64,000 nt of DNA. Source: Vulcanimicrobiota bacterium (lineage in GTDB: Bacteria > Vulcanimicrobiota > Vulcanimicrobiia > Vulcanimicrobiales > Vulcanimicrobiaceae). The notes under the pieces are model-generated. The model was not told the origin of the DNA. It saw only the letters and a list, made by a program, of their open reading frames with translations, and made no database searches. The stretch covers positions 64,001-128,000 of the forward strand of contig CAVZQC010000002.1 of the NCBI GenBank assembly GCA_963777315.1. The letters run 5' to 3'. Below are positions 19,345-42,929 of the stretch, piece after piece. The stretch's first letter is position 1. Each line of letters begins with the position of its first letter. Position numbers and translations under genes: made by a program.

Positions 19345-20922
19345 ATGAAGTGTTTTGCCGGGATGCTGGCTGTCGCCGTCGGCGTAACGGCTGCGTCGCC
19401 GGCCGCCGCCGCGCCGCAAAGCCGGATGGCTGCGGACGTACAGACGATCCTAGCGCGGCCGGCCCTGCGCGCATCGCAGCTGGGAATAGCATTTTACGAC
19501 CTCGACCGGCATCGGATGGCGTTTTCCCGCGATGCGGACAAATACTATGTGGCCGCATCCACGACGAAGCTGCTCACCGAAGGCACCTCGCTTGCGCTGC
19601 TGGGACCCGGCTATCGCTTTACGACAATCGTGTATCGCGACGGTAACGTCGATGCGGCGGGCACGCTGCATGGCGACCTGATCCTGCGCGCGGCGGGAGA
19701 TCCGAATCTTTCGAACCGCGTTCAGCCCAACGATACGCTGGCATTCGAAAACGAGGACCACGCGTACGGCGGAAGCGTGGATACCAAGGCCGTGTCCGGC
19801 GATCCTCTGGCGGTACTTGCGCAGTTCGCACGGCAAATATCGGCGCGCGACATCAAAGCCGTCACCGGACGCGTCCTGGTTGACGATTCGCTGTTTCCGG
19901 ACACGACCCAGGAGCTCGGAACCGGAACCACCGTGGCTCCCATCGCCGTGAACGACAACGTCGTTGACGTAACGGTCAGCCCTGGTGCAGCGGCCGGCGA
20001 TGCAGTCCGAATTTCGGTGTCGCCGCAAACGCCGTACGTTACGTTCGTCAACGGCGCGACGACCGGGGCGCCGCGCTCTGCGAACACGACGAACATGACT
20101 TCCGACGTGGAAGACGCGGCCGGCAACCGGCGCGTCACGATAACGGGCGTCTTCCCGAGCGATTCGCCATCCATTTTGTACGACTATCCGGTGCCTTCTC
20201 CGCGACGGTTCGCCGAAATTGCGCTCGAGCAGGCACTATCGCAAGCAGGCGTGCGGGTTCTGCACGGCGGCAGCAATACGCTGCCGGACGCTGCAAGTCT
20301 GACGCGCACCTATGCAGCGCAAAACGTCGTCGCTCGACACGTTTCGCCGCCGCTCTCGCAAGACGTGAAAGTGACGCTCAAGGTCAGCGACAATTTGCAC
20401 GCGGCGATGATGCCGTATTTGTGGGGCGCGCTCGTCGCCGGTAACAAAACTGATCCGCAAAGCGCGGGATTCAAGCTGGAGCGATCGTTTCTCGCGCGCG
20501 CCGGTTTTAATCCGCTCGACTTCGTGCAGAACGACGGAGAGGGCGCGAACGCCTTTTTCCAGCCCGCCGAAATCGTTCGTTACTTGGCATACTTGCGAAC
20601 GCAGCCGTACTTCGGCGCCGTCTACCGCGGTCTGCCGGTGCTGGGCGTCGACGGAACGCTGTTCAACATCCAAAACCATGCGCCGGCGGCGGGAAAAGTC
20701 CACGCCAAAACCGGGACCAATGGAACCGGCGATCTGCTCAACGGCGGCCGCTTGTTCTTGACGGGCAAGGGTCTTGCCGGATACTTCACCGCCCGCAGCG
20801 GGCGTCATTTCGCGTTTTGCGTGTATCTGAACAACTTTGGTCTGCCGGCCGGCAAAGATCCGTCGCAACCTGCCGGCCAAATCTTGGGAGAAATCGCCAA
20901 CGACGGATATTTGGATCTATGA
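19345..20922 (+). CDS. dacB: D-Ala-D-Ala carboxypeptidase/endopeptidase (PBP4, S13 family)
   Basis: ASTTK (SxxK), GDPNL, SDN, KTGT; signal peptide. Alternative start GTG 19324. Confidence 0.9.
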   Translation: MKCFAGMLAVAVGVTAASPAAAAPQSRMAADVQTILARPALRASQLGIAFYDLDRHRMAFSRDADKYYVAASTTKLLTEGTSLALLGPGYRFTTIVYRDGNVDAAGTLHGDLILRAAGDPNLSNRVQPNDTLAFENEDHAYGGSVDTKAVSGDPLAVLAQFARQISARDIKAVTGRVLVDDSLFPDTTQELGTGTTVAPIAVNDNVVDVTVSPGAAAGDAVRISVSPQTPYVTFVNGATTGAPRSANTTNMTSDVEDAAGNRRVTITGVFPSDSPSILYDYPVPSPRRFAEIALEQALSQAGVRVLHGGSNTLPDAASLTRTYAAQNVVARHVSPPLSQDVKVTLKVSDNLHAAMMPYLWGALVAGNKTDPQSAGFKLERSFLARAGFNPLDFVQNDGEGANAFFQPAEIVRYLAYLRTQPYFGAVYRGLPVLGVDGTLFNIQNHAPAAGKVHAKTGTNGTGDLLNGGRLFLTGKGLAGYFTARSGRHFAFCVYLNNFGLPAGKDPSQPAGQILGEIANDGYLDL

Positions 20923-20949
20923 CTGCTGCACGGCTGCGCTCGCTTCTGT

Positions 20950-22038
20950 TTACGCGCGAACGGTAAGCGGCGCTTTCTTCGTGCGTGCGAGGACGGCCGA
21001 CAGCGCGGACCAAATTTTCGCGCCTCCGTTGCGTACCGGATCGTCCGCAGGGAGTCCGGTTTCGCTTTCCGCTTGCGAAACGGCGGTTGCGGCGGCCGGC
21101 GGATCGAGCGCCGACGTGTCGAGCACGACTGCGGCGACGCGAGCGGGCTTAACCGGATGCAGCATCGCCTCATGCGCTTGCACCAGCGCTGCAAGACTCG
21201 GGATTTCATTATGAAAGCCGTCGATATGCGTCGTATGGGGACGATGGCAAAGGACGAGGGCATCCGGTGCGCTGCCGAACATCAACCCGACCGTTATGGG
21301 CGCGTAAGCAGGATGAAAGATCGACCCCTGGCCCTCGACCAGGAGCACCTCACTCTCGGGCGCGGCGCCGAGCACCAATTGTTCGGCGGCCCCCGTCACG
21401 AAATCCGAAATCACCCGATCCACGCAGATTCCGCGACCGGCGATGACGATGCCCGTTTGTCCGGTTGCGATGAACTCCGTGCGCGTGCCGGCGGCGCGCG
21501 CCGCACGCTCGATCTCCAGCATCGCGGTCATCTTGCCGACGCAGCAGTCGCTGCCGACGGCCAAGACGACGTTTTGCGGCACGTCGTATGCCGCTCCGCT
21601 AAAGATCGGAACGGTGCCGACGCGGCGCACGTCCCATAAACGCGCTCCGCTTTTGGCGGCGCGTGCGGCAACCTGGGGATCGTCGGCAAGAAATTGGTGC
21701 AGCCCGTTGACGATTTCCAAACCGGCATCGACGGCCTGCAAAACGATTTCGCGCAACGGTCCCGGCAGTATGCCGCCGACCGTCGCAACGCCGATCAGCA
21801 GCGACGTCGGCCGGTGCTGCATCGCATCGTGGAGGCTTGCGACGATGGGAGCATCGCTGGTGAGTCCCGGCGCCACGTCGCAAACCCTTTTGCCGGCGTA
21901 CCGTGAGTCGATCAGGGCCGCCACCTGCTCGGGCCGAAAACGTAGGATGCCGTGCGCAGTTTTGCCGGCGGAGGGATCGGCCAGATAACCTTCCGTCAGT
22001 ACGGCGTACCGCCGGTCGTCATTGGCTGGATTCCGCAT
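20950..22038 (-). CDS. DUF1611 family protein (DgcN-like D-amino-acid N-acetyltransferase)
   Basis: GKTAHG, GLHQFL, GSDCCVGKMT, ATGQTG, EGQGSIFHP. Confidence 0.85.
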   Translation of the reverse strand: MRNPANDDRRYAVLTEGYLADPSAGKTAHGILRFRPEQVAALIDSRYAGKRVCDVAPGLTSDAPIVASLHDAMQHRPTSLLIGVATVGGILPGPLREIVLQAVDAGLEIVNGLHQFLADDPQVAARAAKSGARLWDVRRVGTVPIFSGAAYDVPQNVVLAVGSDCCVGKMTAMLEIERAARAAGTRTEFIATGQTGIVIAGRGICVDRVISDFVTGAAEQLVLGAAPESEVLLVEGQGSIFHPAYAPITVGLMFGSAPDALVLCHRPHTTHIDGFHNEIPSLAALVQAHEAMLHPVKPARVAAVVLDTSALDPPAAATAVSQAESETGLPADDPVRNGGAKIWSALSAVLARTKKAPLTVRA

Positions 22039-22055: not shown

Positions 22056-22077
22056 GTGATGAACGAAATTTCATCAC
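22056..22077. promoter_or_regulatory. Inverted repeat, candidate operator upstream of the DUF1611 gene
   Basis: GTGATGAA-CGAAAT-TTCATCAC, with perfect 8-bp arms. Confidence 0.55.
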
Positions 22078-22163
22078 GTACGACGTTTTTTTGGCGACGG
22101 CGATACGTTACACGGCAAGAGTCCGCGACCCTTCCCGCTTGCGGACGACGCCGGTTGCGCGCT

Positions 22164-22770
22164 TTAGTACATCCGTGCGGTCGTTATGGAAACCAGCGAG
22201 GCGGGACGATTGGCGTCGTTCCGTATGCGATGCGGGTAGGCAGCCGAGAATACGCAGCACTCGTGCTCGCCCATGGGATAATCGACGCCGTCGACGACCG
22301 TCACGACGTCACCCTGCGTGACGTAGATGACGTCGATCCCTTCGTGCGTGAGCGCGTTCTTGAACTTCGCGCGAGGAGCGAGATCGACGATGACCAAATC
22401 CAAATCGATTCCCGGCAGATGGAGCGCTTCGTACCGCACTCCTTTGCCTCGATTGATCGTGGCTCGATGTTCCTTGCGCACGAAGTTGGGGCGCGACAGA
22501 CTGCGTGGTAAACCCCAAGAACGAGCCTAAATCGTACTCAAAAAATCGAGCCAAGCGCGCTAGGCGCCCGAGCGAGATGTCGGACTCTCCGCGCTCCACG
22601 GCGCGGATGAACGACTCGGAAAGATCGCTGGACTCGGCAAGTTCGCGGACCGTCACGTTGCGCTGCGCTCGAAGACGCTGCAGGATTTTTCCGACGTCGG
22701 GCACCGATTCGTCCGCTCGCTCGCCGTTGGCCCCCTTTTTGCGCGTGTCATTTTTTGGTGGTCGGCTCAT
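22164..22770 (-). CDS. XRE-family HTH plus cupin transcriptional regulator; +1 frameshift at 22498-22502
   Basis: HTH: LRAQRNVTVRELAESSDLSESFIRAVERG. Cupin: HEGIDVIYVTQG...PHRIRN. Deleting one base (AGACT to AGCT) joins them (202 codons). Confidence 0.85.
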
Positions 22771-22949
22771 ACGGGTTCATTCGCGCCGCAGGCACCTGGC
22801 GGCCTTTGCCTCCCGTCGCCGCCATTCGACAGAATATCGGCTGCAGCCATAAAATTCTGCTGCGCGCCGACAGGAAGGGTCGCGACCGGAGGGAAGCACT
22901 CTCGGATCGAGCGTGCACGGAGCAGATCTCTGTGGAGGAGTTGTTTTAG

Positions 22950-25900
22950 ATGAAGATTGGCGTGCGAACATCCTATGTGTCTGCAGCGCTGCTGCCGGCG
23001 GTTGCGCTGCTCGTCTGCGCTGCCGTCAGTATGCCGCTGTTCGCGAACGCGGCGTCCGCGAACACCAGCACCGTCAGCGGCACCGTGCAGAGCGGCGACG
23101 GCGCACCCGTCGCTAACGCGGCAATAACTTTGGAGGGCGTGACTCGCCTGACCGGCTCGTCCGATGCCAAAGGGGCGTTCACGTTCGCGAACGTGCCCAC
23201 CGGCCTCTATACGATGTTCGTCAGCAAAGCAGGCTACGTGACGTATGAAGACGACAACGTCGTTGCGTTCACCGGTGAAACTACGACCGTAAACGTGACG
23301 CTTGCAGCATCGTCTTTTTCATCGCTGCGTACCATCGCACACGTGTCGACGAATCAGCCCGGCGTCGCGCCGATCAATAAATCCACTGCATCGGTAAGTA
23401 CGATTTCGGGCGCAGTCTTTGCCAATCAAGGACAACAGCAGGTCACTAAAGTCCTCAACGAAACGCCCGGTATCATTACCTCGCCGTATAACGCCGGCGG
23501 CCCAAGCGGCAATCCGAGCAACGGGGCTTCTCCTGCCTCGCCGCAGACTCCACAGATTCGCGGCGCGTTGCCCTACGAAACCGAATCGCTTATCGACGGC
23601 CATCCCGTCTCGGTCGGCTCCATTGGTACCTATTCGCCGAATCTTCTCAACCCATGGTTGCTGCAAGACGTCGAACTCGTCAAAGGCCCGGGCTCGATGC
23701 CGGAGGAGATCAACTACGCGATCAACGGGACGATAAATTACCGTACGTTGGTTCCGACCGCGCAGAGTAAGCATTCCGCAATGTTGGGTTACGATAACTG
23801 GGGCGGTGTCTCTACGGGTTTCAAGGCGACGGGTTTTACGTCGAACCACAAATTCGGCTACGCCGTCGGCTACGTGACCAACGGCGCGCCCGGACCGCTG
23901 CATAACTTCTCCTTTAACGCTACGCAGCTTCCACTGACCAGCGGCCCGCCGGGCGGCCCATACTACGTGAACGGGCAGCAACTTGCGATGATTGGTTCTC
24001 CGGTCGGCTTAGGCGTCGGATCGCCGAAGTTTGCGCCGTACGACGGCATGGGGCTGAGCTTTGCCGACCCCCTGGTCGGATGTTGCTTTACGAGCGACAC
24101 CGGCTATCACTCGACGTCCGAACTAGCGAAGCTTCTCTATAATTTCTCCAACAGCACCTCGCTCACGCTCTCCTATCTCGGCGGCCAGAACATGTACGGG
24201 AACGGAGATCCGGGGTTCTATTCCGACGCGCTGGTCGCAAACACCGGCTTGCCCGCCGCATACTTTGCACCGTGCGGTAACGGTTCCGCGAGCGCCCCTC
24301 TGAACTGCAATCCGCTTGCAAGCGGAGCGTCGTCCTATAACTGCACCGGCACCGGCCATAGCCCACTGTGCAATTCGGCTGTGCCCTTCGATCTCACTTC
24401 CGTCAACGGCGCGGGCCACACGTGGACGCAGCAGAATCTCTTCCAAGGCGAGTTCCGCACGACGCTTGGAAGAACCGGAACGGTGCTCGCGCGGTACTAC
24501 ACCGGCTCACTCAACGACTACGGCCTGTTGGGAACGGCAAGCTCCCAACTGGCGTACTCGTTGAATACCTGGGGTACGATCCCGCTCTGCCCGGCCGGCA
24601 CAACGTTCAATCCGAGCCCGCCGAGCGCCACGAACCCCAGCGGACTTCAATGCCTGACTCCATCGAAAGGCGTCGTCGCACCGGTGAACACTACGTTCAC
24701 CGGTCAGAAAGTGAACTTTTTGACGGCCAATCAGCCGAACACCGCCACGACGAACGATACGATGAGCGGTGAGACGGTCGAACTGCAGGAGTTCCTGGGC
24801 CAGAATACGTTGACGCTCGCCTACGACCGCTCCGAGCAGGGATCGTCCTTGACGGAGAGTGAGCCGTCCGTCGGCATCGTCATCAATAGTCCGTTTAAAG
24901 GATCGAAGCAAACCTTCCAGACGTTCTCGCTGCGCGGCAACGTCAGGCTCAACCCGAAGCTGCAGTTGAATCTTGGCGACTACGCGATCAACTATCTCAG
25001 CCACTATACTCTCGACAAAGGCGCGACCTGGAAAGACTCCACCCATACGTACAACGAGCCGCGATTAGCGCTCACTTGGCTTCCGAACAATGACACGGCG
25101 CTCCGCTTCTCGACGGGCGGATCGGTCGCGCCGCCGTACATCAGTTTGGTTTCGTCCGGCGGTGGCCAGTTTAGCCAGATTATCGGCGGCGTACCGGCGG
25201 CCGGCTATTCACTGAACGCGAATAACGGCGACATCAGTGCGGAGACCGCATGGGGCTACGATCTTGGCATCGACCGCCGTGTCGAGCGCTCCACGTCCGT
25301 TTCGCTCGATCTCTACCTCACGAACCTAAAGAACATGTTTTTAACTCAGACTTCGAGCGTTTCGTTGGCGCAAGCCGCGACGTATGGCGCCGGCTGTCTG
25401 AACCTGCCGTGCGAGATATCGGAAACGGCAAATCTCGGTCACGCCCGTTATGAGGGTATCGAGCTCGCCGTGGATCACACGCCGCTGTTCGGTCTGGGGT
25501 GGAGGCTGCAGGGCTCGTTCCAGCGCGCCTACACGTACGATCTTCCGCCGTACTTCTATTGCGCCGGTTCGATCGATCCAAAAACCGGCGCAACGATCCC
25601 CCCGGGACCGGGCTGCCTCTATAATACGAACCTTGCCGTGATTCCCAACGTGAACTTCGGCGGCCAGCCTACCGGACTCGCCGGAGCTCCGAACGGTATC
25701 GGCAGTGCGCGCGTGCCCTATGCGTTAGGTTACGGCGAGACTCAACTGGGCGGGACACAACGGCCAATACTACAACCTCGGAATAACGTACTTCGGCAAC
25801 AACAACAGCTACAACGTGCCGCCGTTCGCCGTGGTCTCGGGCAATGTTCGGTTCAACGTCAACAACCGCGGAACGAGGCTGCAAATCTCCGGCGATAATC

Positions 25901-26082
25901 TCACCAACGCATATCCGAGTTCGTACGTCGGCTTTTTCAACGGCAGTCCGCTGCCGCTCGTCAACGGCGCGACACAGACCAATCCGCTGACCGGAGCGTA
26001 CCAACCGGCGTATGCCGCCGTTACGCCTGAGGGCAATTACGGTCCGGCGACCATCCGTATCATCCTCACGCAGGACTTCTAA
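22950..26082 (+). CDS. TonB-dependent receptor-like outer-membrane protein with an N-terminal carboxypeptidase-regulatory-like domain; +1 frameshift at 25738-25742
   Basis: Signal peptide; plug motifs QIRG, LIDGHP, VELVKGPG; ETAWGYDLG; C-terminal Phe (LTQDF) after one-base correction (1044 codons). Confidence 0.85.
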
Positions 26083-26088: not shown

Positions 26089-28219
26089 ATGAAACGTTTT
26101 GCAACGGCACTGCTGGCGGCTCTTACGCTGTCGGCAGCGTCCGTTTGCGCCGCATCCGCCTCGGGCGAATTCAGCCTTGAATCGGTGCTCGGATATCCCT
26201 ATCCGCCTACGCTCATTGCGGGAAGCGATAAACGCACGATCGCATACGTGCTCGACGAACGCGGCGTGCGCAACGTGTTCGTTGCGTCTGCGCCGGATTA
26301 CACGCCGCGGATGGTGACGAACTATACGTCCGATGACGGCCAGGAAATTAGCAACCTGCACGTCTCGGCCGACGGAAAATACGCGGTGTACGTGCGCGGC
26401 GGCGATCACGATGCGAATTGGCCACCGCCGTTTGCGCCGGATCCCGCGAGAAGTCCCGTGCAGCCGCAAATGGAAGTGTGGTCGGTAGCGATCGCTAGTG
26501 GTAAGCCGGTATCGCTCGGGAGCGGCGATGCGCCCGCAATTTCGCCCGACAGCCGCCGCGTCGCGTTCATCGCGTCCGATCAATCGGTGTCGTGGGCGCC
26601 GATCGACGGCTCGGCGAAAGCGGATCGCCTCTTTTTCGACGAGGGGCAGGATTCCGATCTGCAATGGTCGCCCGACGGCAAAGCGCTCGCATTCGTTTCC
26701 ACGCGCACCGATCACAGACTTCATCGGCGTGTATCGCAATCAGACCACGGCACTCCAATACCTGGCGCCCACGACCTCTCAGGACATCGAACCGCGATGG
26801 TCGCCCGATGGGACGCGGATAGCGTTCTTACGCGTTCCGGGCGACGGCGGCCCACCCATCGACGAGCTGGAATGGCACGTAACGCCGTGGGCCATTTGGA
26901 TTGCCGACGTCGGCACCGGAGACGGCCGGCGCGTGTGGCAAAGCCCGGACACATTGCGAGCGTCGTTTCCCGACACGTTCGATGTAAGTTTGCGTTGGAA
27001 CGCGGGCAATCACCTCACGTTCGTGTCGGCGCAGGATGGCTGGCCGCACTTGTACGCTATTTCCGCTAGCGGCGGTGCCCCGCACCTACTCACACCGGGC
27101 GCGTACATGGTCGAGGACACCGCGGTTTCGCCGGACGGTACGTTTCTGATTTATTCGGCGAACACCGGAAAGACAGCGGGCGACTTCGAGCGCCGCCATC
27201 TCTTTCGCGTCGACGCGCAGACCGGCCGAATCACCGCGATTACGAGCGGGACGTCCAGTCAGTGGGGTCCGGTGGTAACCGATAACGGGCGCGCCGTCGC
27301 TTTCGTGCAGGCAGGGTCTAAAGAACCGCCGCTGGTAACAGCCGGTCCGCTCACCGGCGGACGATGGACGGCGTTGGATCGCAATCGGGTGCCGGCAGAC
27401 TTTCCAACGGCGCAGCTGATCGTGCCGAAAAGCGTAACCTTTCGTGCGTCGGACGGCCGCGTGGTTCACGGCCAACTTTTCCAGAAAGCCGGCGCAGCCG
27501 CTAAAATGCCGGCGGTCATATTCGTGCACGGCGGTCCTCCGCGGCAGATGTTGACGACGTGGCATTACATGGATTACTACACCAACGGCTACGCGGTCAA
27601 TCAGTATTTGGCCAATCACGGCTTCGCCGTGCTCTCGGTCAACTATCGTCTGAGCATCGGCTATGGGTACGACTATTCGCATCCGGCGCGCTGGGGACCG
27701 AACGGCGCGTCCGAGTACAAAGACGTTTTGGCAGGCAACGCGTTCTTGCAGCGCGATCCTGCAGTCGACGGGCGCCGCATCGGCATCTGGGGCGGCTCGT
27801 ATGGCGGATATCTCACCGCGTTAGCACTGGCGCGCAACTCGGATCGTTTCTGCACGGGCGTCGACTGGCACGGAGTGCACGATTGGTCGACGAGCGAGGC
27901 CATCCCCAATCCGCCGGCTCGTTACCAAATGCCGGATATAAAGAAGGAACGCCGCATCGCGTGGGAATCCTCGCCCGATTCCGCCATCGCAAAGTGGAAA
28001 TCGCCGGTGCTGCTGGTCCAAGGCGACGACGATCACAACGTGCGCTTTCATCAAACGGTCGATCTTGCGCGGCGGCTCGACCTCGCGCACGTGCCGTATA
28101 GCGAACTCGTCATTCCCAATGAGATCCACGGATTTTTACGGTATGCGACGTTTTTGAAGGTCGACCAAGCTACGGTCGACTATTTGCGGAATCATTTAAA
28201 TGAGGGATCGTGCAAATGA
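26089..28219 (+). CDS. Secreted S9 prolyl oligopeptidase/dipeptidyl peptidase with PD40 repeats; +1 frameshift at 26716-26720
   Basis: WSPDG repeats, VHGGP, GGSYGG, QGDDDHNV, EIHG; one-base correction gives 710 codons. Confidence 0.9.
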
Positions 28220-30186: not shown

Positions 30187-31014
30187 TCAGCCGACGAACG
30201 TTTTCATGCAGAAAGCGCCGCCCCCGGCCTTTTCAAATTCCGAGAGGTCGACAACGGCAGGCAGCAGCTTTTCCGTTGCAAGGACGGGTACAATTCGCGC
30301 GGGCATATAAGAAGTAATCAAGCGGCCCTGAGCCACGATGCCGTTGCAGACCAAGCGTAAGGCGTCGTCGACATGCACTTCATACAGCCGATCCCAGAAC
30401 TTGCGTAGATCCGCCATCGCTTCGGCTGAAAAAGCGCCGGGATAAATCAACGCCGCTTCGTTGTTGAGCGGCGAGAAACACGTGTCAAGATGGTAAAACC
30501 GTGGATCGACGAGCTCGAGCGGCCGCACTTGGATGCCTTGTGCCGCCATTGCGGTCCTAAAACGATCCACGCCCGTGCGCGAGGAGCGGAATCCATGTCC
30601 GGCCCAGACGAGCGGCTCGCCCGGATGCCACAGCAGATCGCCGTGCCCTTCCAAATATTCGCCGGTGAGGTCAATCTGAATCTCTTTAAACCCGTGCTCG
30701 CGCAGCCAACTGCGGTAGTATGGAACCTCGCGTTCGCGGGACGGATAACGCATACGGCTCATTACGGCAAACCGTTCGCCTGCGCTCGTACGGCCGGCAA
30801 AAGACTGGTTCGCCGAAAACACCATGTCTTCTAAATCCGGCACCGGCTCGATCGTAAAGGTTGCAACGCCGGCGGCTTCGATCGCCTGCCGGAGCGCGTC
30901 CCACTGCAATTGCGCGCGCGCTTGATCGACAATCGATCCTTGCATGAATGGATTCTTCACGTCGCGCACCGTGAAGTACCGCGGCTCGCACATCAGCACT
31001 CCTTTGGAAAACAT
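30187..31014 (-). CDS. Amidinotransferase / dimethylarginine dimethylaminohydrolase family protein
   Basis: DMVF, EGHGD, FYHLDTCF, EFEKAGGGAFC (catalytic Cys). Confidence 0.88.
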   Translation of the reverse strand: MFSKGVLMCEPRYFTVRDVKNPFMQGSIVDQARAQLQWDALRQAIEAAGVATFTIEPVPDLEDMVFSANQSFAGRTSAGERFAVMSRMRYPSREREVPYYRSWLREHGFKEIQIDLTGEYLEGHGDLLWHPGEPLVWAGHGFRSSRTGVDRFRTAMAAQGIQVRPLELVDPRFYHLDTCFSPLNNEAALIYPGAFSAEAMADLRKFWDRLYEVHVDDALRLVCNGIVAQGRLITSYMPARIVPVLATEKLLPAVVDLSEFEKAGGGAFCMKTFVG

Positions 31015-31118
31015 GGGGCTCCCTTGTATTTTAGCACTGTGGACGAAATATTATCGCAACGGCGGGAATCGGCCCTTCTGCGGCGCACTCTCGAATCAGT
31101 AAAGGAGCGCAAGAGAGC

Positions 31119-34476: not shown

Positions 34477-36024
34477 TCATTTTGCCGCCGGAACCCGGGC
34501 GAACACCGCGTTCGGATCGCCTTCGATGCGGACGACGGATACTCTGCCGAACGGATCGATCTCAAACGTCACCAGCGGACGCAGCAGTTCATCGGTGTTC
34601 GGGACCAGCAGCCGGAAAGAATCCTGATTGAAATGCTCGAGGTCTGCATCGTAACCGAGCATGCGGAAATGCAGCTTGCCGCCGATCAACGTAACCGTCG
34701 CATTCCCGTAGAGATCGTCGTGGTAGGTCCCTGCATACTTGCTCAGAGGCAAGCTCGGATTCGGTCTATATGAAACGATGCGCTCGGATTGCTTCACGGC
34801 CGCGAGCGACTTGGCGTAGAACGCCTGATAGGCGGAATGCAGCTCGGCGCTCCAGTCTCGCGGAGCCGCATTGAGCGTTTCGTCCCAAAAGCGGTTCATG
34901 ATGGCGGTCGTCGCGAAATTGTCCCCCTTGTTGGTGAGGATGACGATTCCGGCGCGCTCGTCCGGAAGAAGCCCGACCATCGCGGTCATGCCGTCGACGT
35001 TGCCCGCATGCTGGATGGCTTTGTGTCCGCGGTAGTCGTCCAAAATCCAACCCATGCCGTAGTCCATGAAGTGCGATATGGGACCGAAAAACGTCCACGG
35101 AATCTCGAGCGGCATGATCGTTTCCGGAGCCCACATATCGCCCAACGTTTTCGCCTGCAGCAGGCGGTGTCCGCGGTACGTGCCCCCGTTCAGCAGCATT
35201 TCCAGCCAATGCGACATGTCGATCGCGTTGCTGTTGATTCCGCCGGCGGGCGCGATATTGTTCAGATTGTCGGGCGGCACTTTTCGCAGCTTGCCATCGA
35301 CGACGTCGTGCGGCGCGGCGACGTCGCTCGCGGCCTTCAGGCCGTCATAAGTCGTCGTCGACGACGTCATTGCGAGCGGAACGAATATTCTGTTATGGAC
35401 AAAGGTGTCCCAGCTCATTCCGGTTACTGCAGGCACGATCTGTCCGGCCGTAAGCACCATGTTGTTGTTGTATTCGAAGCGGGCGCGAAAGCTGTATGCA
35501 GGCGGCAGATACCGCAACCTTCGGACTATCTGGTCGCGGCTCAAATCGCTATTGGCCCACAGCTCGTCGGCTCGTGCGAGCCCCGTACGATGGCTGAGCG
35601 CGTCCCGAATCGTGACTTCCCGCGTGACCCACGGATCGTACATTTGAAACCACGCAAGCCGGTCGATGATGCGATCGTCCCATGAAATCTTTTTTTCGTC
35701 GACGAGCATGCCGAGCGCAGCGACGGTAAAAGCCTTCGAACTGGAACCGATCTGGAAGATTGTCTTGCTATCGACCGGCGCGGGATTCCCGAGCGCTCGG
35801 ACGCCGTACCCTTTGACGTAAACGCGGCCGTCGCGGACGATGGCGATCGAGAGTCCCGGAATGCCCCAATCATGCATTGCCTTGAGCACGTAGGCATCGA
35901 AGCCGGCGGACACCACCGGCGTAGCGTCGGGCGCGCCGGCCGCCCGCGCGGACAACGCTCCAAGACCGAAGAAAACGGCCAGGAAAGCGGCCATGCACCG
36001 CCGCGTCGTTAAAGCAATGCTCAT
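34477..36024 (-). CDS. Secreted beta-lactamase-family serine hydrolase with DUF3471
   Basis: GSSSK, SHRTG, YNN, HAG; signal peptide. Confidence 0.88.
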   Translation of the reverse strand: MSIALTTRRCMAAFLAVFFGLGALSARAAGAPDATPVVSAGFDAYVLKAMHDWGIPGLSIAIVRDGRVYVKGYGVRALGNPAPVDSKTIFQIGSSSKAFTVAALGMLVDEKKISWDDRIIDRLAWFQMYDPWVTREVTIRDALSHRTGLARADELWANSDLSRDQIVRRLRYLPPAYSFRARFEYNNNMVLTAGQIVPAVTGMSWDTFVHNRIFVPLAMTSSTTTYDGLKAASDVAAPHDVVDGKLRKVPPDNLNNIAPAGGINSNAIDMSHWLEMLLNGGTYRGHRLLQAKTLGDMWAPETIMPLEIPWTFFGPISHFMDYGMGWILDDYRGHKAIQHAGNVDGMTAMVGLLPDERAGIVILTNKGDNFATTAIMNRFWDETLNAAPRDWSAELHSAYQAFYAKSLAAVKQSERIVSYRPNPSLPLSKYAGTYHDDLYGNATVTLIGGKLHFRMLGYDADLEHFNQDSFRLLVPNTDELLRPLVTFEIDPFGRVSVVRIEGDPNAVFARVPAAK

Positions 36025-37775
36025 CACGGCAAGTCGATCCGATACAGCTCGAAGCCGTCTTCCCATAGGCGCTGCATCTTGCCGGCCGCCGGAGTGTCGA
36101 AACGAATCGTCGTCGAGCCCACGGTAAACCCTCCGTCTTTGCGCGGCGTAAGAGGCGCGCCGTCAAGCATCAAATGCCCTTTGAGGACGAACACTCGGCT
36201 TGCGGCGGCCGTTCCCCACACGCCCAAACTTTCGTAGCGGCCTATCAATGCATTCCAGGCGTGCGGATACGAGAAGCTTCGTGCGCCGGTGTATGCCGGC
36301 GTTGCGTACCACAGGTCCCCCGACGTCACTTGATCCATCGCGCCCGTCTTGCCGCTGCGCGAAAACGATAGACCGAAGATCTGAAATCGCGGATCGTCGA
36401 CGTAAAAGGTTGCGCCGCCTCGCGGATAGAGCACTTTAGCGCCCCCGGGATCCTGCAGTTTCAAGCTCGTGCCGTCGGTAGTGACCACCACGCTCGAACC
36501 GTCAGGTGCCGTGTACGTGCCCGCATAGCTCGCGGCGTCTGGAACGTTCGTGCGCTGCAGGTAGTTGCCCATGGAGGGCGGCAGGGGCGGCAGCGGGCTC
36601 CCTGCGCCTTGCGCTTGCAGAACTTTGATTGCATAGAGCACAATGGCACAGGGATGGAGCGGCGCTTCGACCAGATTCGACATCGCAATGACGCCGAAGC
36701 CGCGCGTCACGTCATTTTCCATGCAGGCCGAATATCCGGCGATTCCGCCGGTATGCCCCACGATCGTATCGCCGTTCTCCTGGTGAACGGCCAAACCGAA
36801 AGCGTAGTGCTCGTACATCTGCGGCGCTTCCTCGAGTTCGGGCGAGACCTGTCCGGCGACTTTGCCGTTCGTCGAATCCGGCGTCGTCCACAAGGCATAG
36901 CTCGACGGCGACACGACGCGCCGCCCGGAGTCGCTCACCCCCTGATTTAAAATCACCCGCATGTACTTTGCCATGTCTTCGGGCGTTGAGATAACCGAGC
37001 CGGCAGGATCGATGTAATCCCCCGGCAGCGAGTACACCAGTGGCGGACTGGGCGGCGTAATGCGATTCGTATCTTGAAAGACGTACCCGTAGGCTGCGTC
37101 GGCGAGCGTTTCCGGCGTGAACACCGCGCTGCTGTGCGCCATGCCCAGCGCGTCGAACACGCGTGCCTGCAGCGAATCGGCCCAGGGTTTTCCATCGAGC
37201 GCGGCTTGAATCGCACCCACCGTCGCAAGCCCGTCGTTGGAATATGACCAACTCGCGCCGGGATTAAATATCGTGTGCGCGTTCCGCAGCGCTGCCACCG
37301 TATAGAGATAGCCCGGCGCAATCGAAAAATCGTCCGGGAAACCGGCGGTGTGCGAGAGCAGCTGATGAGCGTAAACGACCTTGCCGCCTGAGTGAATCGA
37401 GAACCACGGCAGATAGGTGCGCACTGGTTTGGCTGGGTCGAATTTGCCTTCGTCGCGCAGTTCCATAAGTGCCAGCGCCGTCATGCCCTTACTAATGGAA
37501 CCTATGGGAAAGCGCGTGGAACCCGTGACCGGAGTCTTCGCCTCGAGATTCGCATAGCCGAGCGTAATGATGCGCAGCGTGTGACGACGATCGGTGATCG
37601 CGACCGACATCCCCGGTGCGCCTTGTTCCTGCAAGGCTTGTGGGGCGTAGGCTTCGATGTTTCTGAGCGCATCGTCCATGCTGGGCGGCTGCGCGGCGAT
37701 TGCGGGCACGATGCTGGAAAACGCTGCGGCGACGGCGATGCCTGCAGCGATTCTACGGTACAGAGAACTGCGCAT
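36024..37775 (-). CDS. Secreted beta-lactamase-family serine hydrolase
   Basis: GSISK, LLSHTAG, YSN, HTGG; signal peptide. Confidence 0.88.
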   Translation of the reverse strand: MRSSLYRRIAAGIAVAAAFSSIVPAIAAQPPSMDDALRNIEAYAPQALQEQGAPGMSVAITDRRHTLRIITLGYANLEAKTPVTGSTRFPIGSISKGMTALALMELRDEGKFDPAKPVRTYLPWFSIHSGGKVVYAHQLLSHTAGFPDDFSIAPGYLYTVAALRNAHTIFNPGASWSYSNDGLATVGAIQAALDGKPWADSLQARVFDALGMAHSSAVFTPETLADAAYGYVFQDTNRITPPSPPLVYSLPGDYIDPAGSVISTPEDMAKYMRVILNQGVSDSGRRVVSPSSYALWTTPDSTNGKVAGQVSPELEEAPQMYEHYAFGLAVHQENGDTIVGHTGGIAGYSACMENDVTRGFGVIAMSNLVEAPLHPCAIVLYAIKVLQAQGAGSPLPPLPPSMGNYLQRTNVPDAASYAGTYTAPDGSSVVVTTDGTSLKLQDPGGAKVLYPRGGATFYVDDPRFQIFGLSFSRSGKTGAMDQVTSGDLWYATPAYTGARSFSYPHAWNALIGRYESLGVWGTAAASRVFVLKGHLMLDGAPLTPRKDGGFTVGSTTIRFDTPAAGKMQRLWEDGFELYRIDLP

Positions 37776-39123
37776 GTTCCTCCTCGTTCGGCTGCGCGAT
37801 CGGCGATACGACGACTCTTGCGGGCGCTCGGCGCCACAAGAGATAGATTGGTATGCCGGAAAAGAAAATTCCTAGACCTACGAGTGAATCACGCGGAAAC
37901 GCGACGTACGCGTTGATCACGAAAACGGCGCTCACGCCGGCAAAGAACAGCGTGCTCCACGGATGTCCCGGAATGCACCAGCCCGGCGTGCGTTTGCGCG
38001 CATCGCGCCGGCGAAAAATAAATACCGCCGCGGCCGCGAGGGTCATATATAGGAAGTCCATCGGCGTGACATAGTTGAGGATGCGCTGGTAGCTTCCCCA
38101 GCCGACGATGACTCCGGCAACGGCGCATTGCAGTGCAATCGCTACGATCGGCGTCTTTGCTTTGGGATGCAAGTACGCGAGTTGTTTGAAAAACACCCCG
38201 TCGCGCGCCATCGTATAGTATAAGCGCGGAATGGTCAGCGCCATATTCCCCAAAAAACCCAGCGTGGAGAGCGCGATGAACGCGGCTACTATCCCTTCCC
38301 CAGGGCCGCCGACGACCATCTTCACCATGTCGGTTGCCGGTGTCGGTGTCTGCGCCAGCCCCTGCGCTCCAAGCATTCGCAAACCGCCAAGCGTTACGGC
38401 CAGATACAGGACGACGACGCCGATAACGCCGAGCACCAGCCCTACGGGCAGCGCGCGTTGCGATTCCTTCATTTCACAGTCCATGTACGGCGCGGTTTGC
38501 CAGCCGTCGTACGAATAAAAGACCGGGATGAGCGCGGCGCCGAGCGCGGCCAGCATGCTCAGCGAACCCATGGACGCCGGCAGCACGACATGCTGATGGT
38601 GCCCCGGCGGGCCGAAGAATCCCGCGGCGATGATTAGCGCGATTGCGCCGATCTTCATGATCATCATCACGTTCTGCGTCACGACGCCTTGCCGCACGCC
38701 AAAACAGTTTACGAGCCCGGTCGCGAGGATCGCGGCAACCGCCAGCAATCGCACGTCGAACGGAAGCCACAGATGCGCATACGTGCCGAAAGTCACCGCA
38801 ACGGCCGCGATCGCGCCGCTCTCGCTCACGAGCAGCGCAGTCCATCCGGACATAAACGCAAGACCCGGATGATAGGCGTCGCGCAAATATCCGTACATCC
38901 CGCCGACATTCGGTCTGCGCGCCGCCAATTCGGCAAACACGAACGCGCCAATCAAGGCGATGACGCCGCCCAGCAGCCACGCGAACACGATCAGGCCCGT
39001 GGAGTGCAAGCGCTGCGCAACGACCGAAGGATTCATGAAAATGCCGGACGCGATGATGCCGCCCATCACGATGAGCGTAGCGTCGAAAGGGCCCAGTCGT
39101 TTGACGAGGTGCGGCCGGCTCAC
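37753..39123 (-). CDS. APC-family amino acid permease
   Basis: About 12 TM helices; GGIIASGIF, FAELAARRP..GG.Y, YDGW. Confidence 0.92.
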   Translation of the reverse strand: MSRPHLVKRLGPFDATLIVMGGIIASGIFMNPSVVAQRLHSTGLIVFAWLLGGVIALIGAFVFAELAARRPNVGGMYGYLRDAYHPGLAFMSGWTALLVSESGAIAAVAVTFGTYAHLWLPFDVRLLAVAAILATGLVNCFGVRQGVVTQNVMMIMKIGAIALIIAAGFFGPPGHHQHVVLPASMGSLSMLAALGAALIPVFYSYDGWQTAPYMDCEMKESQRALPVGLVLGVIGVVVLYLAVTLGGLRMLGAQGLAQTPTPATDMVKMVVGGPGEGIVAAFIALSTLGFLGNMALTIPRLYYTMARDGVFFKQLAYLHPKAKTPIVAIALQCAVAGVIVGWGSYQRILNYVTPMDFLYMTLAAAAVFIFRRRDARKRTPGWCIPGHPWSTLFFAGVSAVFVINAYVAFPRDSLVGLGIFFSGIPIYLLWRRAPARVVVSPIAQPNEEEHAQFSVP

Positions 39124-39170
39124 TGCCGTAGCGTTACCTGGTCTCAGCCGTAGTTCCTCGCGCTACTGCG

Positions 39171-39270
39171 CGAAATATCGCCCATGCTGCTGAAATATCG
39201 GCACTTAATGCGTAGGTGGACCGCCGGCAGGTCGCCGAAATTCCGTCCTGGAAGGCGAAATTCTGTCCTG
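39171..39270. promoter_or_regulatory. Two pairs of 20-bp-period direct repeats in a divergent promoter region
   Basis: GAAATATCG at 39172 and 39192; CGAAATTC(C/T)GTCCTG at 39236 and 39256. Confidence 0.65.
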
Positions 39271-39304
39271 CTCCCCCGCACGGATTTTAGAGAAAGGCAC
39301 CCGG

Positions 39305-40318
39305 ATGCACCGCACCTCGAACGCCGTCGCCGTGAACGCAACACTCGAACGCTGGCCGCTGCGCTATCCGTTTCGCATAACCGGCTACGAATGGACCCAG
39401 ACGGAGGTGCTGGTCGTGGAGGTGGAAAGCAGCGGCTTGCGCGGCCGGGGCGAAGCCTGCGGCGTCTACTACAAAAACGACACGCCCGAAAGCGCTTTGG
39501 CGCAAGTACGAGAGGTATCCAACGACCTTGCCGGCGGAGCCGGACGCCGGGAGCTGCAGGCGCTGCTGCCCCCGGGCGGCGCTCGCAACGCCCTCGATTG
39601 CGCGCTCTGGGATTTGGAAGCCAAACACTCGGGAACTCCGGTGTGGCGGTTGGCGGGTCTCGAGTCGCCGCGACCGCTTCTCACGACCTACACCTTGGGC
39701 GCGGACGTTCCGGAAACCATGGCGCAACGTGCTCGCGATTTCGCCGGCGCGCGCGCACTTAAACTCAAGCTGACGGGTGACGGCAACGACAAAGCGCGCG
39801 TTCTGGCGGTCCGCGCGGCGCGACCGGACGTGTGGCTGGCCGTGGATGCGAATCAAGGCTTTACCGCCGAATCACTCGAGCAGCTAATGCCGGCGCTGAC
39901 TGCAGCGCGAGTCGAACTCATCGAACAGCCGTTTCCAATCGGCCGCGAAGGCGATCTCGACGGGTTCGAATCGGAGATTCCGATCGCGGCGGACGAAAGC
40001 GCGCAAAGCATGGCCGATCTCGCCGGCCTCGTCGGACGCTTCAAAGTCGTAAACATCAAGCTGGACAAGTGCGGAGGACTTACGCACGCGCTCGAGATGG
40101 AAGCCGAGGCGCGCCGTCTGGGCCTAAAGGTGATGGTCGGCAACATGTCCGGAACCTCACTTGCGATGGCGCCCGCCTTTGTGCTGGGGCAACGGTGCGA
40201 TGTAACGGATCTTGACGGGCCGTTGGTGCTGCAGCGCGACCGGCAACCGGGCGTCAGTTACGAGCGCGGCTGCATTTGGTGTCCCGAGGAAGTATGGGGC
40301 GCAGGAGCGATACGTTGA
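39305..40318 (+). CDS. Enolase-superfamily dipeptide epimerase / N-acyl-D-amino acid racemase (L-Ala-D/L-Glu epimerase, DgcA-like)
   Basis: KLK, VDANQ, EQP, ADES, KLDKCGG, DLDG. Confidence 0.9.
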   Translation: MHRTSNAVAVNATLERWPLRYPFRITGYEWTQTEVLVVEVESSGLRGRGEACGVYYKNDTPESALAQVREVSNDLAGGAGRRELQALLPPGGARNALDCALWDLEAKHSGTPVWRLAGLESPRPLLTTYTLGADVPETMAQRARDFAGARALKLKLTGDGNDKARVLAVRAARPDVWLAVDANQGFTAESLEQLMPALTAARVELIEQPFPIGREGDLDGFESEIPIAADESAQSMADLAGLVGRFKVVNIKLDKCGGLTHALEMEAEARRLGLKVMVGNMSGTSLAMAPAFVLGQRCDVTDLDGPLVLQRDRQPGVSYERGCIWCPEEVWGAGAIR

Positions 40319-41436
40319 GAGCGTTGATTGCGGCGATTCTTACGCTCGCGGCCGGCACCGCTGCGCAAGCACACCCGTTCACCCCGGCCCAAACCGCAAA
40401 CTTTAACCGCATCGTCGCTCGCGCAATGGCGCAGGAGCATATTGCCGGGCTCGAGCTCGGAATTGGGAGAAAGGGCAAAGTGCTGTTTGCCCACGGTTAT
40501 GGACTGCGTGACCGCCAACGCCGTTTGCCGGTGACGGCGCAAACGGTGTTTCCAATCGGCTCTATCACCAAGCAGTTTTCGTCGACTGCGGCGCTCCTGC
40601 TGACCGAGCGGGGCCGGCTCACTCTCGACGCGCCGGTCGCACGGTATCTTCCACGCGCGCCGCATGCGAGCGAGATCACCGTGCGCGAATTGCTCGATCA
40701 AACCAGCGGCTTGCCCGACTATTTGGAGAACAAACCGCTTCTTGCGGCTATTTTTAAAGGCACTGCCGGACCGAGCTCGACCGCGAGTTTGGTGGGGCTC
40801 GTGCGCGGCATGCCGCTGCACTTCAAGCCCGGCACAAAGTACGAGTACAGCAACACGAACTACGCGCTCGTCGGAATGCTGATAGCCCGCGTTTCGGGAA
40901 TGTCGTACCCGCAGTTCGTCGAGCAGCACATTTTCGATCCGCTGGATTTGACGTCGATGCAATACCTGCGGACGTCGATTCCGGCGGGCGATGACGCAGC
41001 CAACGGCTACAATTATCAAAAAGGGCGCTTTTTGGTCATTCCACGAGAATCGATGGATTGGGCGAATGCGGCCGGAGCGCTCGCGTCGACCGTGACGGAC
41101 CTCATTCACTGGGACGGCGCGTATTTCGGCAATCGCATTTTGCCGGCTCGCCTGGTGCGCGTCGCGACGACGCCGCCCGCGCACATCCCCATGGTCACGT
41201 CGAAGGATCAAAAGAACAATCTGGGCGTAGGTTACGCATTCGGATGGGCGCGCGGATATTTCGATTCGCGTCCCGTAATCTGGCACAACGGCGGCCTTCC
41301 CGGCGCCCGCGCGATGAATCTGGTGTACCCGCGGGACGGTTTGGAAATCGAAGTGCTTACCAACGTCACCGATGCGTCGCCGGAGGTCATTGCGCTCAGA
41401 ATCGCACGCGCGATCTACCAAGCTTCGACCCGCTAA
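40315..41436 (+). CDS. Secreted beta-lactamase-family serine hydrolase
   Basis: GSITK, LLDQTSGL, YSNTNY, HNGG; TTG start overlaps the upstream stop. Confidence 0.88.
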   Translation: MRALIAAILTLAAGTAAQAHPFTPAQTANFNRIVARAMAQEHIAGLELGIGRKGKVLFAHGYGLRDRQRRLPVTAQTVFPIGSITKQFSSTAALLLTERGRLTLDAPVARYLPRAPHASEITVRELLDQTSGLPDYLENKPLLAAIFKGTAGPSSTASLVGLVRGMPLHFKPGTKYEYSNTNYALVGMLIARVSGMSYPQFVEQHIFDPLDLTSMQYLRTSIPAGDDAANGYNYQKGRFLVIPRESMDWANAAGALASTVTDLIHWDGAYFGNRILPARLVRVATTPPAHIPMVTSKDQKNNLGVGYAFGWARGYFDSRPVIWHNGGLPGARAMNLVYPRDGLEIEVLTNVTDASPEVIALRIARAIYQASTR

Positions 41437-41441
41437 GACCG

Positions 41442-42929
41442 ATGCGGATCTTCACCGCTGCGATCGTGACCGAGACCAACACGTTTTCACCAATTCCAAC
41501 GGGATGGCAAGCGTTTTCGCAGCACGGTATCCAGCACGGTCGCCATGCCCGGGTAGAGCCTACGTCCGAGTTTGCCACCATGGTGCGCTGGCGGGAGCTG
41601 GCGCAGATGGAAGGGCACACGATCGTCGAGAGCGTGGCGGCGGCGGCCGAGCCAGCGGGCCCAACGCTGCAACCGGTTTATGAATCGCTGCGGGACGAGC
41701 TGCTCGAAGATCTCCAGCACGCTCTGCCGGTCGACGTCGTATTGCTCTATCTGCACGGCGCCATGGTGGCGCAGGGATATGACGATTGCGAGGGCGACAT
41801 CCTTGCTCGCGTACGCGCAATAGCCGGGATAAAGACGATCCTGGCAGCTGAACTGGATTTGCACGCGCATCTGACGCCGCAAATGCTCGCGGCGTCGACG
41901 CTGGTGATCGCGTATAACGAATATCCGCACACCGATATCGTGGAGCGCGGCGAGGCGCTGTATTGCATGAGCGTAGCAGCTGCGCGTGGAGCGATCCGTC
42001 CCGTCATGGCGGCGTTCGATTGCAAAATGAGCGGCATCTTTCCGACGGAGACCGCGCCGATGAGGGCACTGCTTGGCGAAATGCGCGCAGCAGAATGCGG
42101 CGGCGTGCTTTCGCTGAGTCTGGTTCACGGGTTCCCGTGGGGCGACGTGGCGCACGCCGGCGCCAAGTTTCTTGCCGTCGCCGACGGCGACGCCGATCTC
42201 GCGCGTTCGACGGCGACGCGATTCGGGCTCGCGTTTTGGGACATTCGCGAGCGAGCGCAAATCCAAGCTCATTCGATCGACGGGGCGCTGGATGCAGCAC
42301 TTTTGGCCGCCGCCGGACCGGTGGTATTGGCGGATGCCGGCGACAATGCTGGCGGAGGCGCTCCCGGCGATGCCACACATGTGCTTCGCCGCGTGCTCGA
42401 ACGCAACGTGAAGAACGTGGTCAGCGGCGTGTACTACGATCCCGGCGCGGTTCAAATATGTTTTGAGGCGGGAGAAAGCGCCGTCATCGATTTGCGTTGC
42501 GGAGGAAAACTCGGTGCCGCATCGGGCATGCCGCTCGACTTGAGGGTGACCGTACGCAAGCTGTGCGAGCATCACTCGCAAGATTCGATGGACGATTCTC
42601 AGCCGGTTCCATTCGGGCGCGCTGCTTGGGTGGAAGCGGACGGCGTACATCTGGTACTCGCTTCCATTCGGGGCCAAGTGTTCGCCCCCAATGCTTTTAC
42701 CAATCTCGGCATTCCAATTGACCTGGCGCGGATCGTCGTGGTGAAATCCTCACACCATTTTTGGGGGAAGTTCGCGCCGATCGCGACCCAGATGTTTCAT
42801 CTATCGAGCCCCGGAGCGCTCCCACTCGATTTCGCAACCATCGACTACAAGAAGCGTGAACTGGACTATTGGCCGCGCGTTGCCGACCCATTGGGTCGAC
42901 TGCGAGAGCCCTGCGCCGGTAGCGGGTAA
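41442..42929 (+). CDS. M81-family metallopeptidase (MlrC-like)
   Basis: ETNTFSP, LHGAM, LDLHAH, YPHTD, DNAGGG, KSSHHF. Confidence 0.92.
   Translation: MRIFTAAIVTETNTFSPIPTGWQAFSQHGIQHGRHARVEPTSEFATMVRWRELAQMEGHTIVESVAAAAEPAGPTLQPVYESLRDELLEDLQHALPVDVVLLYLHGAMVAQGYDDCEGDILARVRAIAGIKTILAAELDLHAHLTPQMLAASTLVIAYNEYPHTDIVERGEALYCMSVAAARGAIRPVMAAFDCKMSGIFPTETAPMRALLGEMRAAECGGVLSLSLVHGFPWGDVAHAGAKFLAVADGDADLARSTATRFGLAFWDIRERAQIQAHSIDGALDAALLAAAGPVVLADAGDNAGGGAPGDATHVLRRVLERNVKNVVSGVYYDPGAVQICFEAGESAVIDLRCGGKLGAASGMPLDLRVTVRKLCEHHSQDSMDDSQPVPFGRAAWVEADGVHLVLASIRGQVFAPNAFTNLGIPIDLARIVVVKSSHHFWGKFAPIATQMFHLSSPGALPLDFATIDYKKRELDYWPRVADPLGRLREPCAGSG

Follow-up and report, generated by a model that had tools for sequence, protein, structure and literature searches.

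A cluster of 15 genes was identified at positions 19345–42929 of a 64,000-nucleotide stretch of DNA (hereafter the window; contig CAVZQC010000002.1, positions 64,001–128,000) from an uncultured soil member of the Vulcanimicrobiota. We consider it probable, though well short of certain, that these genes belong to a co-inherited, inducible regulon, likely repressed by its XRE-cupin protein, by which the cell takes up and degrades, as food, small protease-resistant peptides of foreign origin with a range of D-amino acids. The likely substrates are non-ribosomal peptides and lipopeptides from soil, possibly joined by the wall peptides of other species. The gene content, the motifs, the co-inheritance and a paired palindrome were established directly, while the chemical steps are those that we infer. 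Every family that the original prediction, made from the sequence of the window, had placed in the cluster was located there with Pfam and NCBIfam profiles and re-checked coordinates, and the catalytic motifs of the hydrolases and the epimerase are intact.

The synteny search that had been proposed with that prediction was run over 150 genomes of the family, ten of which are unpublished and were counted in denominators only (one, G044, also entered one motif count). An epimerase match was present in 140 genomes, most of which had only a type with 30–40% identity to the locus enzyme. The locus type itself (53–76% identity) was found in 28 genomes, representing 16 genera. All 28 carry the regulator (33 of the 150 overall), 26 an M81 metallopeptidase at an identity of at least 57% (27 overall), 23 the receptor at 61% or above (25 overall) and 22 a locus-type DUF1611 protein (24 overall). 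Within 20 kb of the 28 epimerase genes were found those for the family-5 solute-binding protein (SBP5; 24 genomes), regulator (23), M81 (22), SxxK5 (22), SxxK0 (20), receptor (16), DUF1611 (16), SxxK2 (12), S9 peptidase (7), DacB (5), amidinotransferase (5), APC permease (3), SxxK4 (3) and SxxK1 (2), all of these counts being lower bounds owing to short contigs. Gene order varies widely among the 28 relatives, and no further family recurs in five or more of their loci. It is apparent that the families are co-inherited and that their clustering is conserved, in shuffled order.

Five of the 14 SxxK genes in the genome lie within 13.3 kb at the locus, a density that was reproduced by none of 200,000 random placements. 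The five proteins are only 23–37% identical in pairwise comparisons, so the genes are not recent duplicates.

The host groups with the Vulcanimicrobiota. Among named M81 loci, the closest are those of Vulcanimicrobiota/Eremiobacterota, several of them labelled Baltobacteraceae. Two stretches labelled Alphaproteobacteria and 'Candidatus Acidoferrum' (L108, L111) contain a Vulcanimicrobiota-type locus at 59–66% identity, in the gene order of L114; these represent either mislabelled bins or transfer.

A paired palindrome and related loci in other phyla

The upstream regions of the relatives contain a 10-bp quasi-palindrome, CRAWATWTYG, which is mostly paired at exactly 20 bp (65 of 101 neighbour spacings). 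A motif matrix was trained on the relatives, with the genome under study held out, and a pair-score threshold of 20 was applied. In the 2.8 Mb of this genome, seven pairs reached the threshold at the 20-bp spacing, as compared with zero to two at each of seven other spacings. Five of the seven are situated in four intergenic regions that head units of the locus. These candidate operators lie upstream of the DUF1611 gene (22064–22093, score 20.4), between the divergent regulator and receptor genes (22830–22859, 28.7), between the divergent amidinotransferase and SxxK2 genes (31024–31053, 23.7), and on the APC side (39171–39200, 29.2, the highest score in the genome) and epimerase side (39236–39265, 28.9) of one region. 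A sixth pair precedes the SxxK0 gene on contig C4 (75970–77970), and the seventh is on contig C1, between a divergent SxxK gene and that of a D-aminoacylase homologue. No pair was found upstream of dacB in this genome.

When one mismatch was allowed, the pair pattern was observed in 28 of 33 regulator-bearing genomes versus 8 of the 117 others, with a single site in each of the latter; a reversed control pattern was observed in 1 of 151 genomes. In 1.24 Mb of DNA fetched from the relatives, all 96 pairs lie upstream of a gene of the system, at a distance of at most 400 bp; this result is partly circular, as many of these pairs trained the matrix. From among the listed sites that fall beyond the DNA fetched earlier, a sample of 20 was inspected (a further 34 matches are unlisted); 14 of the 20 precede S9, DacB or SxxK genes.

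The XRE-cupin regulator (22164–22770, minus strand), a core member of the set, would be the protein that binds this motif, because the two co-occur, because sites precede its own gene, and because of the known behaviour of the family (PMC7901475). HTH_3 and Cupin_2 domains were found in the intact orthologue from genome G001 and were also matched by the two halves of the window gene, which is split by a +1 insertion near 22500. The palindrome pair is likely the on–off switch of the regulon. A promoter scan of 38900–39400 revealed no sigma-70-like site, and an overlap of motif and promoter is thus without support.

Two further groups of genes carry the motif in other genomes. A second S9 peptidase family (L166:4036–6156, L167–L171, L174 and L175), 86–91% identical over six genomes and approximately 70% in two more, has a pair directly at the ribosome site and start codon. 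Strong pairs also precede two small paralogous proteins of 94–103 amino acids and of unassigned family in G123 and G148 (L172:4068, L173:4085), which are possible extra regulon members.

Four plasmid hits from other phyla were examined. Three of them, from the cultured sphingomonads Croceicoccus marinus E4A9, Novosphingobium sp. EMRT-2 and Sphingobium yanoikuyae CC4533, carry a related operon, and the Bradyrhizobium hit contains the epimerase and DUF1611 genes only. The sphingomonad operons encode an XRE-cupin protein, SxxK0 (40–43% identity), an epimerase of the same clade (56–58%), a receptor, DUF1611, a membrane protein and an SxxK-DUF3471-type hydrolase, together with a POT peptide permease in two, a D-aminoacylase homologue in one and an M19 dipeptidase in one. 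Their epimerases score 353–379 against the DgcA model. The paired palindrome was not found upstream in these four plasmid loci or in the four proteobacterial M81 loci scanned, apart from a lone match with another spacing in L190. In the sphingomonad operons, a conserved element of their own, TTGACAATTTTCT...AGGA, is found ahead of both the first gene and the receptor gene (L189:12850–13030 and 17330–17480; L190; L192), and their XRE-cupin protein, which is a different one, probably binds at this repeated element. The membrane protein is conserved, has 371–377 amino acids and no Pfam or NCBIfam match (L189:20896–22011, L190:20739–21860, L192:16356–17489), and we take it to resemble YkvI-type transporters.

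Among 54 more distant M81 loci, three contain an epimerase gene and eight an SxxK gene. Four loci annotated in detail, those of Pseudoduganella, Hydrocarboniphaga, Henriciella and Roseateles, have in addition differing combinations of receptors, DAO-family oxidoreductases and racemase-family genes; the racemase genes are of the alanine-racemase-fold and proline-racemase families. Seven M81 genes are arranged in tandem in Stella vacuolata (L139:9119–19400), and tandem M81 pairs occur in many Alphaproteobacteria.

Predicted gene products and proposed pathway

Uptake would begin at the TonB-dependent-receptor-like protein (22950–26082, plus strand, core, with a +1 insertion near 25740), in which Plug and CarboxypepD_reg domains scored above cut-off. 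Its barrel gave no Pfam match in the window or in the G139 copy, and PF00593 is listed for several close homologues. The receptor, with its plug domain, is predicted to take peptides into the periplasm, energised by TonB encoded elsewhere; eight TonB_C matches were found in the genome, all outside the locus. Fragments released in the periplasm would then be imported by two routes. The first is SBP5 (32886–34469, minus strand), a core member and likely lipoprotein (PF00496; best PDB match AppA, 1XOC), acting with a shared ABC permease. An SBP5 homologue was found in 27 of the 28 relatives; the genome contains 13 SBP5 genes, and its seven ABC permease matches are all elsewhere. The second route is an accessory APC amino-acid permease (37753–39123, minus strand; PF13520; 6 of 28 relatives).

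Cleavage in the periplasm would be carried out by the exported SxxK enzymes, the membrane-anchored SxxK0, the S9 peptidase and DacB. DacB/PBP4 (peptidase S13; 19345–20922, plus strand) is an accessory protein with a signal peptide. It passes the cut-off of its family model (TIGR00666, 156.5 bits versus 107.8), has the SxxK/SxN/KTG motifs as STTK, SDN and KTG, and is encoded in the fetched stretches of 7 of the 28 relatives. The S9 peptidase (26089–28219, plus strand, accessory, with a +1 insertion near 26717) has a propeller and a signal peptide (PF00326, PF00930), retains its Ser-Asp-His motifs (GGSYGG, GDDD, EIHG) and occurs in 10 of the 28 stretches.

SxxK1 (28216–30168, plus strand; PF00144; SNTK/YSN/HGG; 4 of 28 relatives) and SxxK4 (36024–37775, minus strand; PF00144; 6 of 28) are exported and accessory. 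SxxK3 (34477–36024, minus strand) is an exported protein with a DUF3471 domain, identified by profile match, motifs and hydropathy; no orthologue was found in the epimerase-centred stretches of the 28 relatives, and homologues are present in the G055 locus (54% identity) and the sphingomonad operons (34–37%). SxxK5 (40294–41436, plus strand) is an exported, single-domain core member present in 25 of the 28. Its best NCBIfam match is D-aminopeptidase, under cut-off, and its top PDB matches are 2QMI, Flp and DD-peptidases. SxxK2 (31119–32867, plus strand; PF00144 and PF11954, the latter being DUF3471; 12 of 28 relatives) has no signal peptide, nor do nine aligned full-length orthologues. Hydropathy gave signal-peptide-like N-termini in the other four, in agreement with the predicted division into four secreted enzymes and one cytoplasmic enzyme. 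SxxK0, a core member outside the window, is a hydrolase of 636–667 amino acids with a periplasmic domain and four C-terminal membrane helices.

All five SxxK proteins of the locus retain SxxK, YxN and HxG, the motif set of D-stereospecific S12 peptidases, and they would be expected to cut at D-residue bonds. Identity as class C β-lactamases was ruled out, as motif III is HxG and not KTG, the criterion for that class (PMC12903863), in all five, and as the scores against NF033085 were 51.8–93.7 bits versus a cut-off of 415.

Hydrolysis would be completed in the cytoplasm by SxxK2, the M81 metallopeptidase and the D-aminoacylase. The M81 protein (41442–42929, plus strand; core; 26 of 28 relatives) is MlrC-like and cytoplasmic. 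It matches the MlrC structure (PDB 7YLQ, E value 1e–89), with E11, D139, H141 and H163 aligning with the MlrC zinc-site residues E39, D167, H169 and H191, and its score against the MlrC-specific model (323.5) does not reach the cut-off of 999. The D-aminoacylase homologue, an amidohydrolase and distant regulon member (C1:132476–134089), has D-aminoacylases as its best solved relatives (PDB 1M7J, E value 4e–91) and is under the NF006560 cut-off. Its HSH, GNCG, SHIR, SHHK and SDG motifs align with those relatives and presumably form the metal site. The closest orthologues (71–91%) are all from locus-bearing genomes, and weaker homologues occur in 91 of 151 genomes.

The epimerase (39305–40318, plus strand), the core marker of the set, is an enolase-superfamily dipeptide epimerase/DgcA-like racemase. 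It retains the two catalytic lysines, three acidic metal ligands and the DxD motif (KLK, DAN, EQP, DES, NIK, DLDG), and scored 240.9 bits against the Ala-Glu epimerase model NF011708 (cut-off 343). Its capping loop reads FRITGYEW, versus FVIARGSR in the Escherichia coli Ala-Glu epimerase (1JPD). In the Bacillus subtilis enzyme, from which the residue roles were taken, the carboxylate of the substrate is bound by Arg24 and its amine by D321/D323 (bioRxiv 2022.05.01.490185); the counterpart of Arg24 was deduced by alignment. An arginine is absent from this loop stretch in 108 of the 120 closest homologues, while DxD is kept in all 120. Because the loop arginine is missing, the enzyme would be expected to act on a non-glutamate, probably hydrophobic, residue, inverting it from D to L within a dipeptide or once the DUF1611 protein has N-acylated it.

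The latter (20950–22038, minus strand) is a DgcN-like, cytoplasmic core protein with both DUF1611 domains (PF07755 and PF17396; PDB 7XRJ, E value 1e–52). It scored 256.6 against the DgcN model NF041892, short of the cut-off of 480, and may N-acylate D-amino acids. In a midpoint-rooted tree built with no outgroup, the locus DUF1611 groups with the housekeeping copy of the host and the epimerase with proteobacterial ones. The accessory amidinotransferase-fold enzyme (30187–31014, minus strand; DDAH/arginine dihydrolase-like; 7 of 28 relatives), under cut-off with both NF045659 (172.7) and NF052232 (150.7), would free nitrogen from arginine-type residues. Finally, a product of the pathway, bound by the cupin domain, would relieve repression.

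The genes form approximately seven units across both strands, and not one operon. The many overlapping stop and start codons that had been noted are present to a degree: overlaps of 4, 1, 23 and 25 bp occur at four of the 14 junctions, and gaps of 5–7 bp at another three. A genomic island was ruled out by composition, as the G+C content of the locus (59–63%) is that of the remainder of the window. Three genes, those of the regulator, receptor and S9 peptidase, have one +1 insertion apiece relative to their orthologues (at about 22500, 25740 and 26717, respectively). These frameshifts are probably assembly or sequencing errors; one base at 22500 is missing from a 405-bp contig that shows no mismatches and whose run could be that of the source sample, and this contig contradicts only the break in the regulator. 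A pseudogene reading is disfavoured by that contig and by the background of split frames (4 of 45 genes in 48.8 kb outside the locus, compared with 3 of 15 in the approximately 22 kb of the locus).

Isocitrate lyase and malate synthase genes adjoin the locus upstream (15942–18698) and were not found next to it in relatives. A YbjQ-family gene and a 95-amino-acid membrane gene lie 5′ of dacB (18714–19319); this pair is within the locus in G098 and approximately 14 kb from the regulator in G001. Genes for tRNA-Glu and tRNA-Met (54821–54895 and 56212–56284) are situated 12 kb past the locus, and no connection was seen.

Substrate and alternative explanations

The original prediction described the cluster as a candidate utilisation locus for D-amino-acid-containing peptides, with a complete pipeline. 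The conserved gene set and the shared candidate operator speak in its favour, and the D-amino-acid theme is independently supported by the D-aminoacylase homologue under the same motif and by the DAO-family and racemase genes beside the proteobacterial loci. Completeness did not hold: the locus is not sufficient by itself, because TonB, the ABC permeases, the core SxxK0 and the D-aminoacylase are encoded elsewhere.

Several observations weigh against the proposal of a D-peptide feeding regulon. DacB is the only locus enzyme to clear a curated NCBIfam cut-off, and its presence suggests wall peptides. The SxxK-fold PDB matches include esterases and amidases, the nearest solved relatives being distant. 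The epimerase narrowly misses the cut-off of the DgcA model NF042940 (390.5 versus 400), the locus epimerase of one relative has the loop arginine, and in the G123 locus the epimerase is of the housekeeping type and has the arginine. A futile cycle could arise if one regulon contained both a D-aminoacylase and a DgcN-type acetyltransferase, and one of the two assignments may therefore be off. The AlphaFold model of the receptor barrel, from 11 sequences, is of low confidence (predicted local distance difference test score 37). Six of the 20 distant motif sites precede unrelated genes, 51 of the 54 distant M81 loci lack the epimerase, and the sphingomonad operons have no M81 listed, a different motif and a regulator with no BLAST match to that of the locus. 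In addition, the 150 genomes of the family are kin, so that counts over them are not independent trials.

A regulon specialised in peptidoglycan peptides, either scavenged stem and cross-bridge peptides of dead bacteria or those of the cell itself, is rather unlikely. The DacB motifs are intact, SxxK5 resembles DD-peptidases, Ala-Glu epimerases have been proposed to recycle peptidoglycan (PMC13338154), and DgcN-DgcA turns D-Glu into L-Glu (PMC10845958). However, the relatives' loci show no recurrent glycan, amidase or NlpC/P60 family; AnmK, NagZ, amidase and NlpC/P60 are absent from the locus in the window, with anmK elsewhere (C1:82750) and lacking the operator pair; and DacB is found in only 7 of 28 relatives. 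A separate housekeeping locus lies on contig C2 (536299–540957; L069:10377–14957). Nearly all genomes of the family have an epimerase of the type encoded there, and a second DUF1611 and a second SBP5 accompany this epimerase in six of six copies examined, followed by a C39-like peptidase (tested with Pfam in this genome only). The operator motif was detected in none of the six copies. Self wall recycling by the regulon is disfavoured because this motif-free housekeeping locus exists and because the regulon epimerase, like 108 of its 120 homologues, lacks the loop arginine. The housekeeping locus would be the better candidate for recycling of the cell's own wall peptides, and its C39-like enzyme may replace the NlpC/P60 γ-D-Glu peptidase of murein-peptide recycling. 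Of the three substrates first envisaged, peptidoglycan, by way of recycling, and poly-γ-glutamate are thus weaker candidates than non-ribosomal peptides.

It is improbable that the system serves mainly for detoxification, destroying peptide antibiotics or biosurfactants that contain D-residues, and that nutrition is a secondary role. The many exported D-peptidase-like enzymes and the periplasmic domain of SxxK0, with its four C-terminal membrane helices, would suit such a role, and SxxK peptidases induced by lipopeptides are known (PMC12903863). Nevertheless, an importer in the outer membrane, two uptake components in the inner membrane and stereo-inversion in the cytoplasm fit feeding and not defence, and no efflux gene recurs in the relatives' loci.

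Slightly less credence is given to non-peptide amides or esters (acylated plant or fungal metabolites, amino sugars), for which the D-peptide appearance would derive from family names. The D-aminoacylase family does include the carbohydrate de-N-acetylase OngB, esterases are among the SxxK matches, and M81 occurs in many other contexts. On the other side, SBP5, the POT dipeptide permease of the sphingomonads and the S9 and M19 peptidases indicate peptides, and the amine-binding DxD is kept in all 120 epimerase homologues. Utilisation of poly-γ-glutamate is very improbable: the DgcN/DgcA-like pair and the cleavage of the Adda-Glu bond by MlrC (PMC12474180) would accord with it, but the glutamate-binding loop arginine is missing, both Dgc cut-offs were missed, and no γ-glutamyl hydrolase family is present among the 15 locus genes (no genome-wide search was made). 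A chance pile-up of unrelated accessory hydrolases, to be considered in a genome with 14 SxxK, 13 SBP5 and several receptor-like genes and at a locus with unconserved gene order, is largely refuted by the joint inheritance of the genes in 16 genera and by the motif that they share.

Comparison with known systems

Soil turnover of peptides containing D-amino acids is poorly mapped. Enzymes that cut D–L bonds are scarce and useful (PMC12903863), and the present system brings together seven or more divergent SxxK families, an M81 peptidase and an epimerase of apparently altered specificity. The motif is a handle for listing regulon members in uncultured genomes, and the cultured Croceicoccus, Novosphingobium and Sphingobium strains, with their related operon, allow the substrate to be tested directly. 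The proposal, if true, would also give context for the origin of microcystin degradation. The pairing of CRAWATWTYG at a 20-bp spacing is new here. No description of the assembly, including the combination of DUF1611 with the epimerase, was found in the literature searched, which excluded most subscription journals.

Polysaccharide utilisation loci combine an outer-membrane receptor, exported and cytoplasmic hydrolases and a local regulator. The analogy that had been drawn with them stands for the layout only, as both a SusD-like partner and carbohydrate-active enzymes are absent. The XRE-cupin regulons of Pseudomonas, such as that of PsdR, likewise place such a regulator next to peptide-binding protein and peptidase genes, with palindromic sites (PMC7901475); the present system is larger and has distant members, paired sites at a fixed 20-bp spacing and D-residue enzymes. 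The Lip3/Lip7 DL-peptidases of Paenibacillus (PMC12903863) and other D-stereospecific S12 enzymes share the SxxK/YxN fold, extra C-terminal domains and export. The locus enzymes differ in motif III (HxG versus KGG), match structure 9SN1 with E values of only approximately 1e–21, and are accompanied by import and stereo-inversion.

The claim that the assembly lacks precedent was not sustained, as the mlr cluster (mlrA–F) of the Sphingomonadaceae combines the same hydrolase families and the DUF1611–epimerase pair resembles DgcN/DgcA. In mlr, MlrB cuts Ala-Leu and MlrC Adda-Glu (PMC12474180), MlrE is a dipeptidase and MlrF a D-aminoacylase (PMC4520899). An SxxK hydrolase (MlrB), an M81 peptidase (MlrC), a peptide transporter and a D-aminoacylase (MlrF) are common to both systems (see also PMC9982164), and the sphingomonad relatives of the locus also have the POT permease and, in one case, the M19 dipeptidase, corresponding to the roles of MlrD and MlrE. 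In contrast to mlr, the present system belongs to soil Vulcanimicrobiota, has five to seven SxxK families where mlr has one, includes in addition the receptor, epimerase, DUF1611, S9, DacB and an XRE-cupin protein with its own motif, and has no MlrA-type gene among its 15 locus genes (the genome was not searched for one). The DgcN-DgcA D-glutamate pathway (PMC10845958, PMC12363236) likewise joins DUF1611 with an enolase-superfamily racemase; the locus pair differs from it in its scores (256.6/480 and 390.5/400), its loop without arginine, its often non-adjacent genes and its setting within a peptide-hydrolase regulon. By analogy, the system would work like mlr joined to a Dgc-like pair and is a member of neither, because MlrA is absent from the locus and the MlrC, DgcA and DgcN cut-offs were missed. 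We would suggest only tentatively that it is the generalist parent type of mlr, a cross-phylum D-peptide utilisation regulon for whole non-ribosomal peptides and lipopeptides, in which an epimerase of new specificity (FRI-T/S-G-Y/H loop) and DUF1611 would constitute an undescribed hydrophobic D-to-L route.

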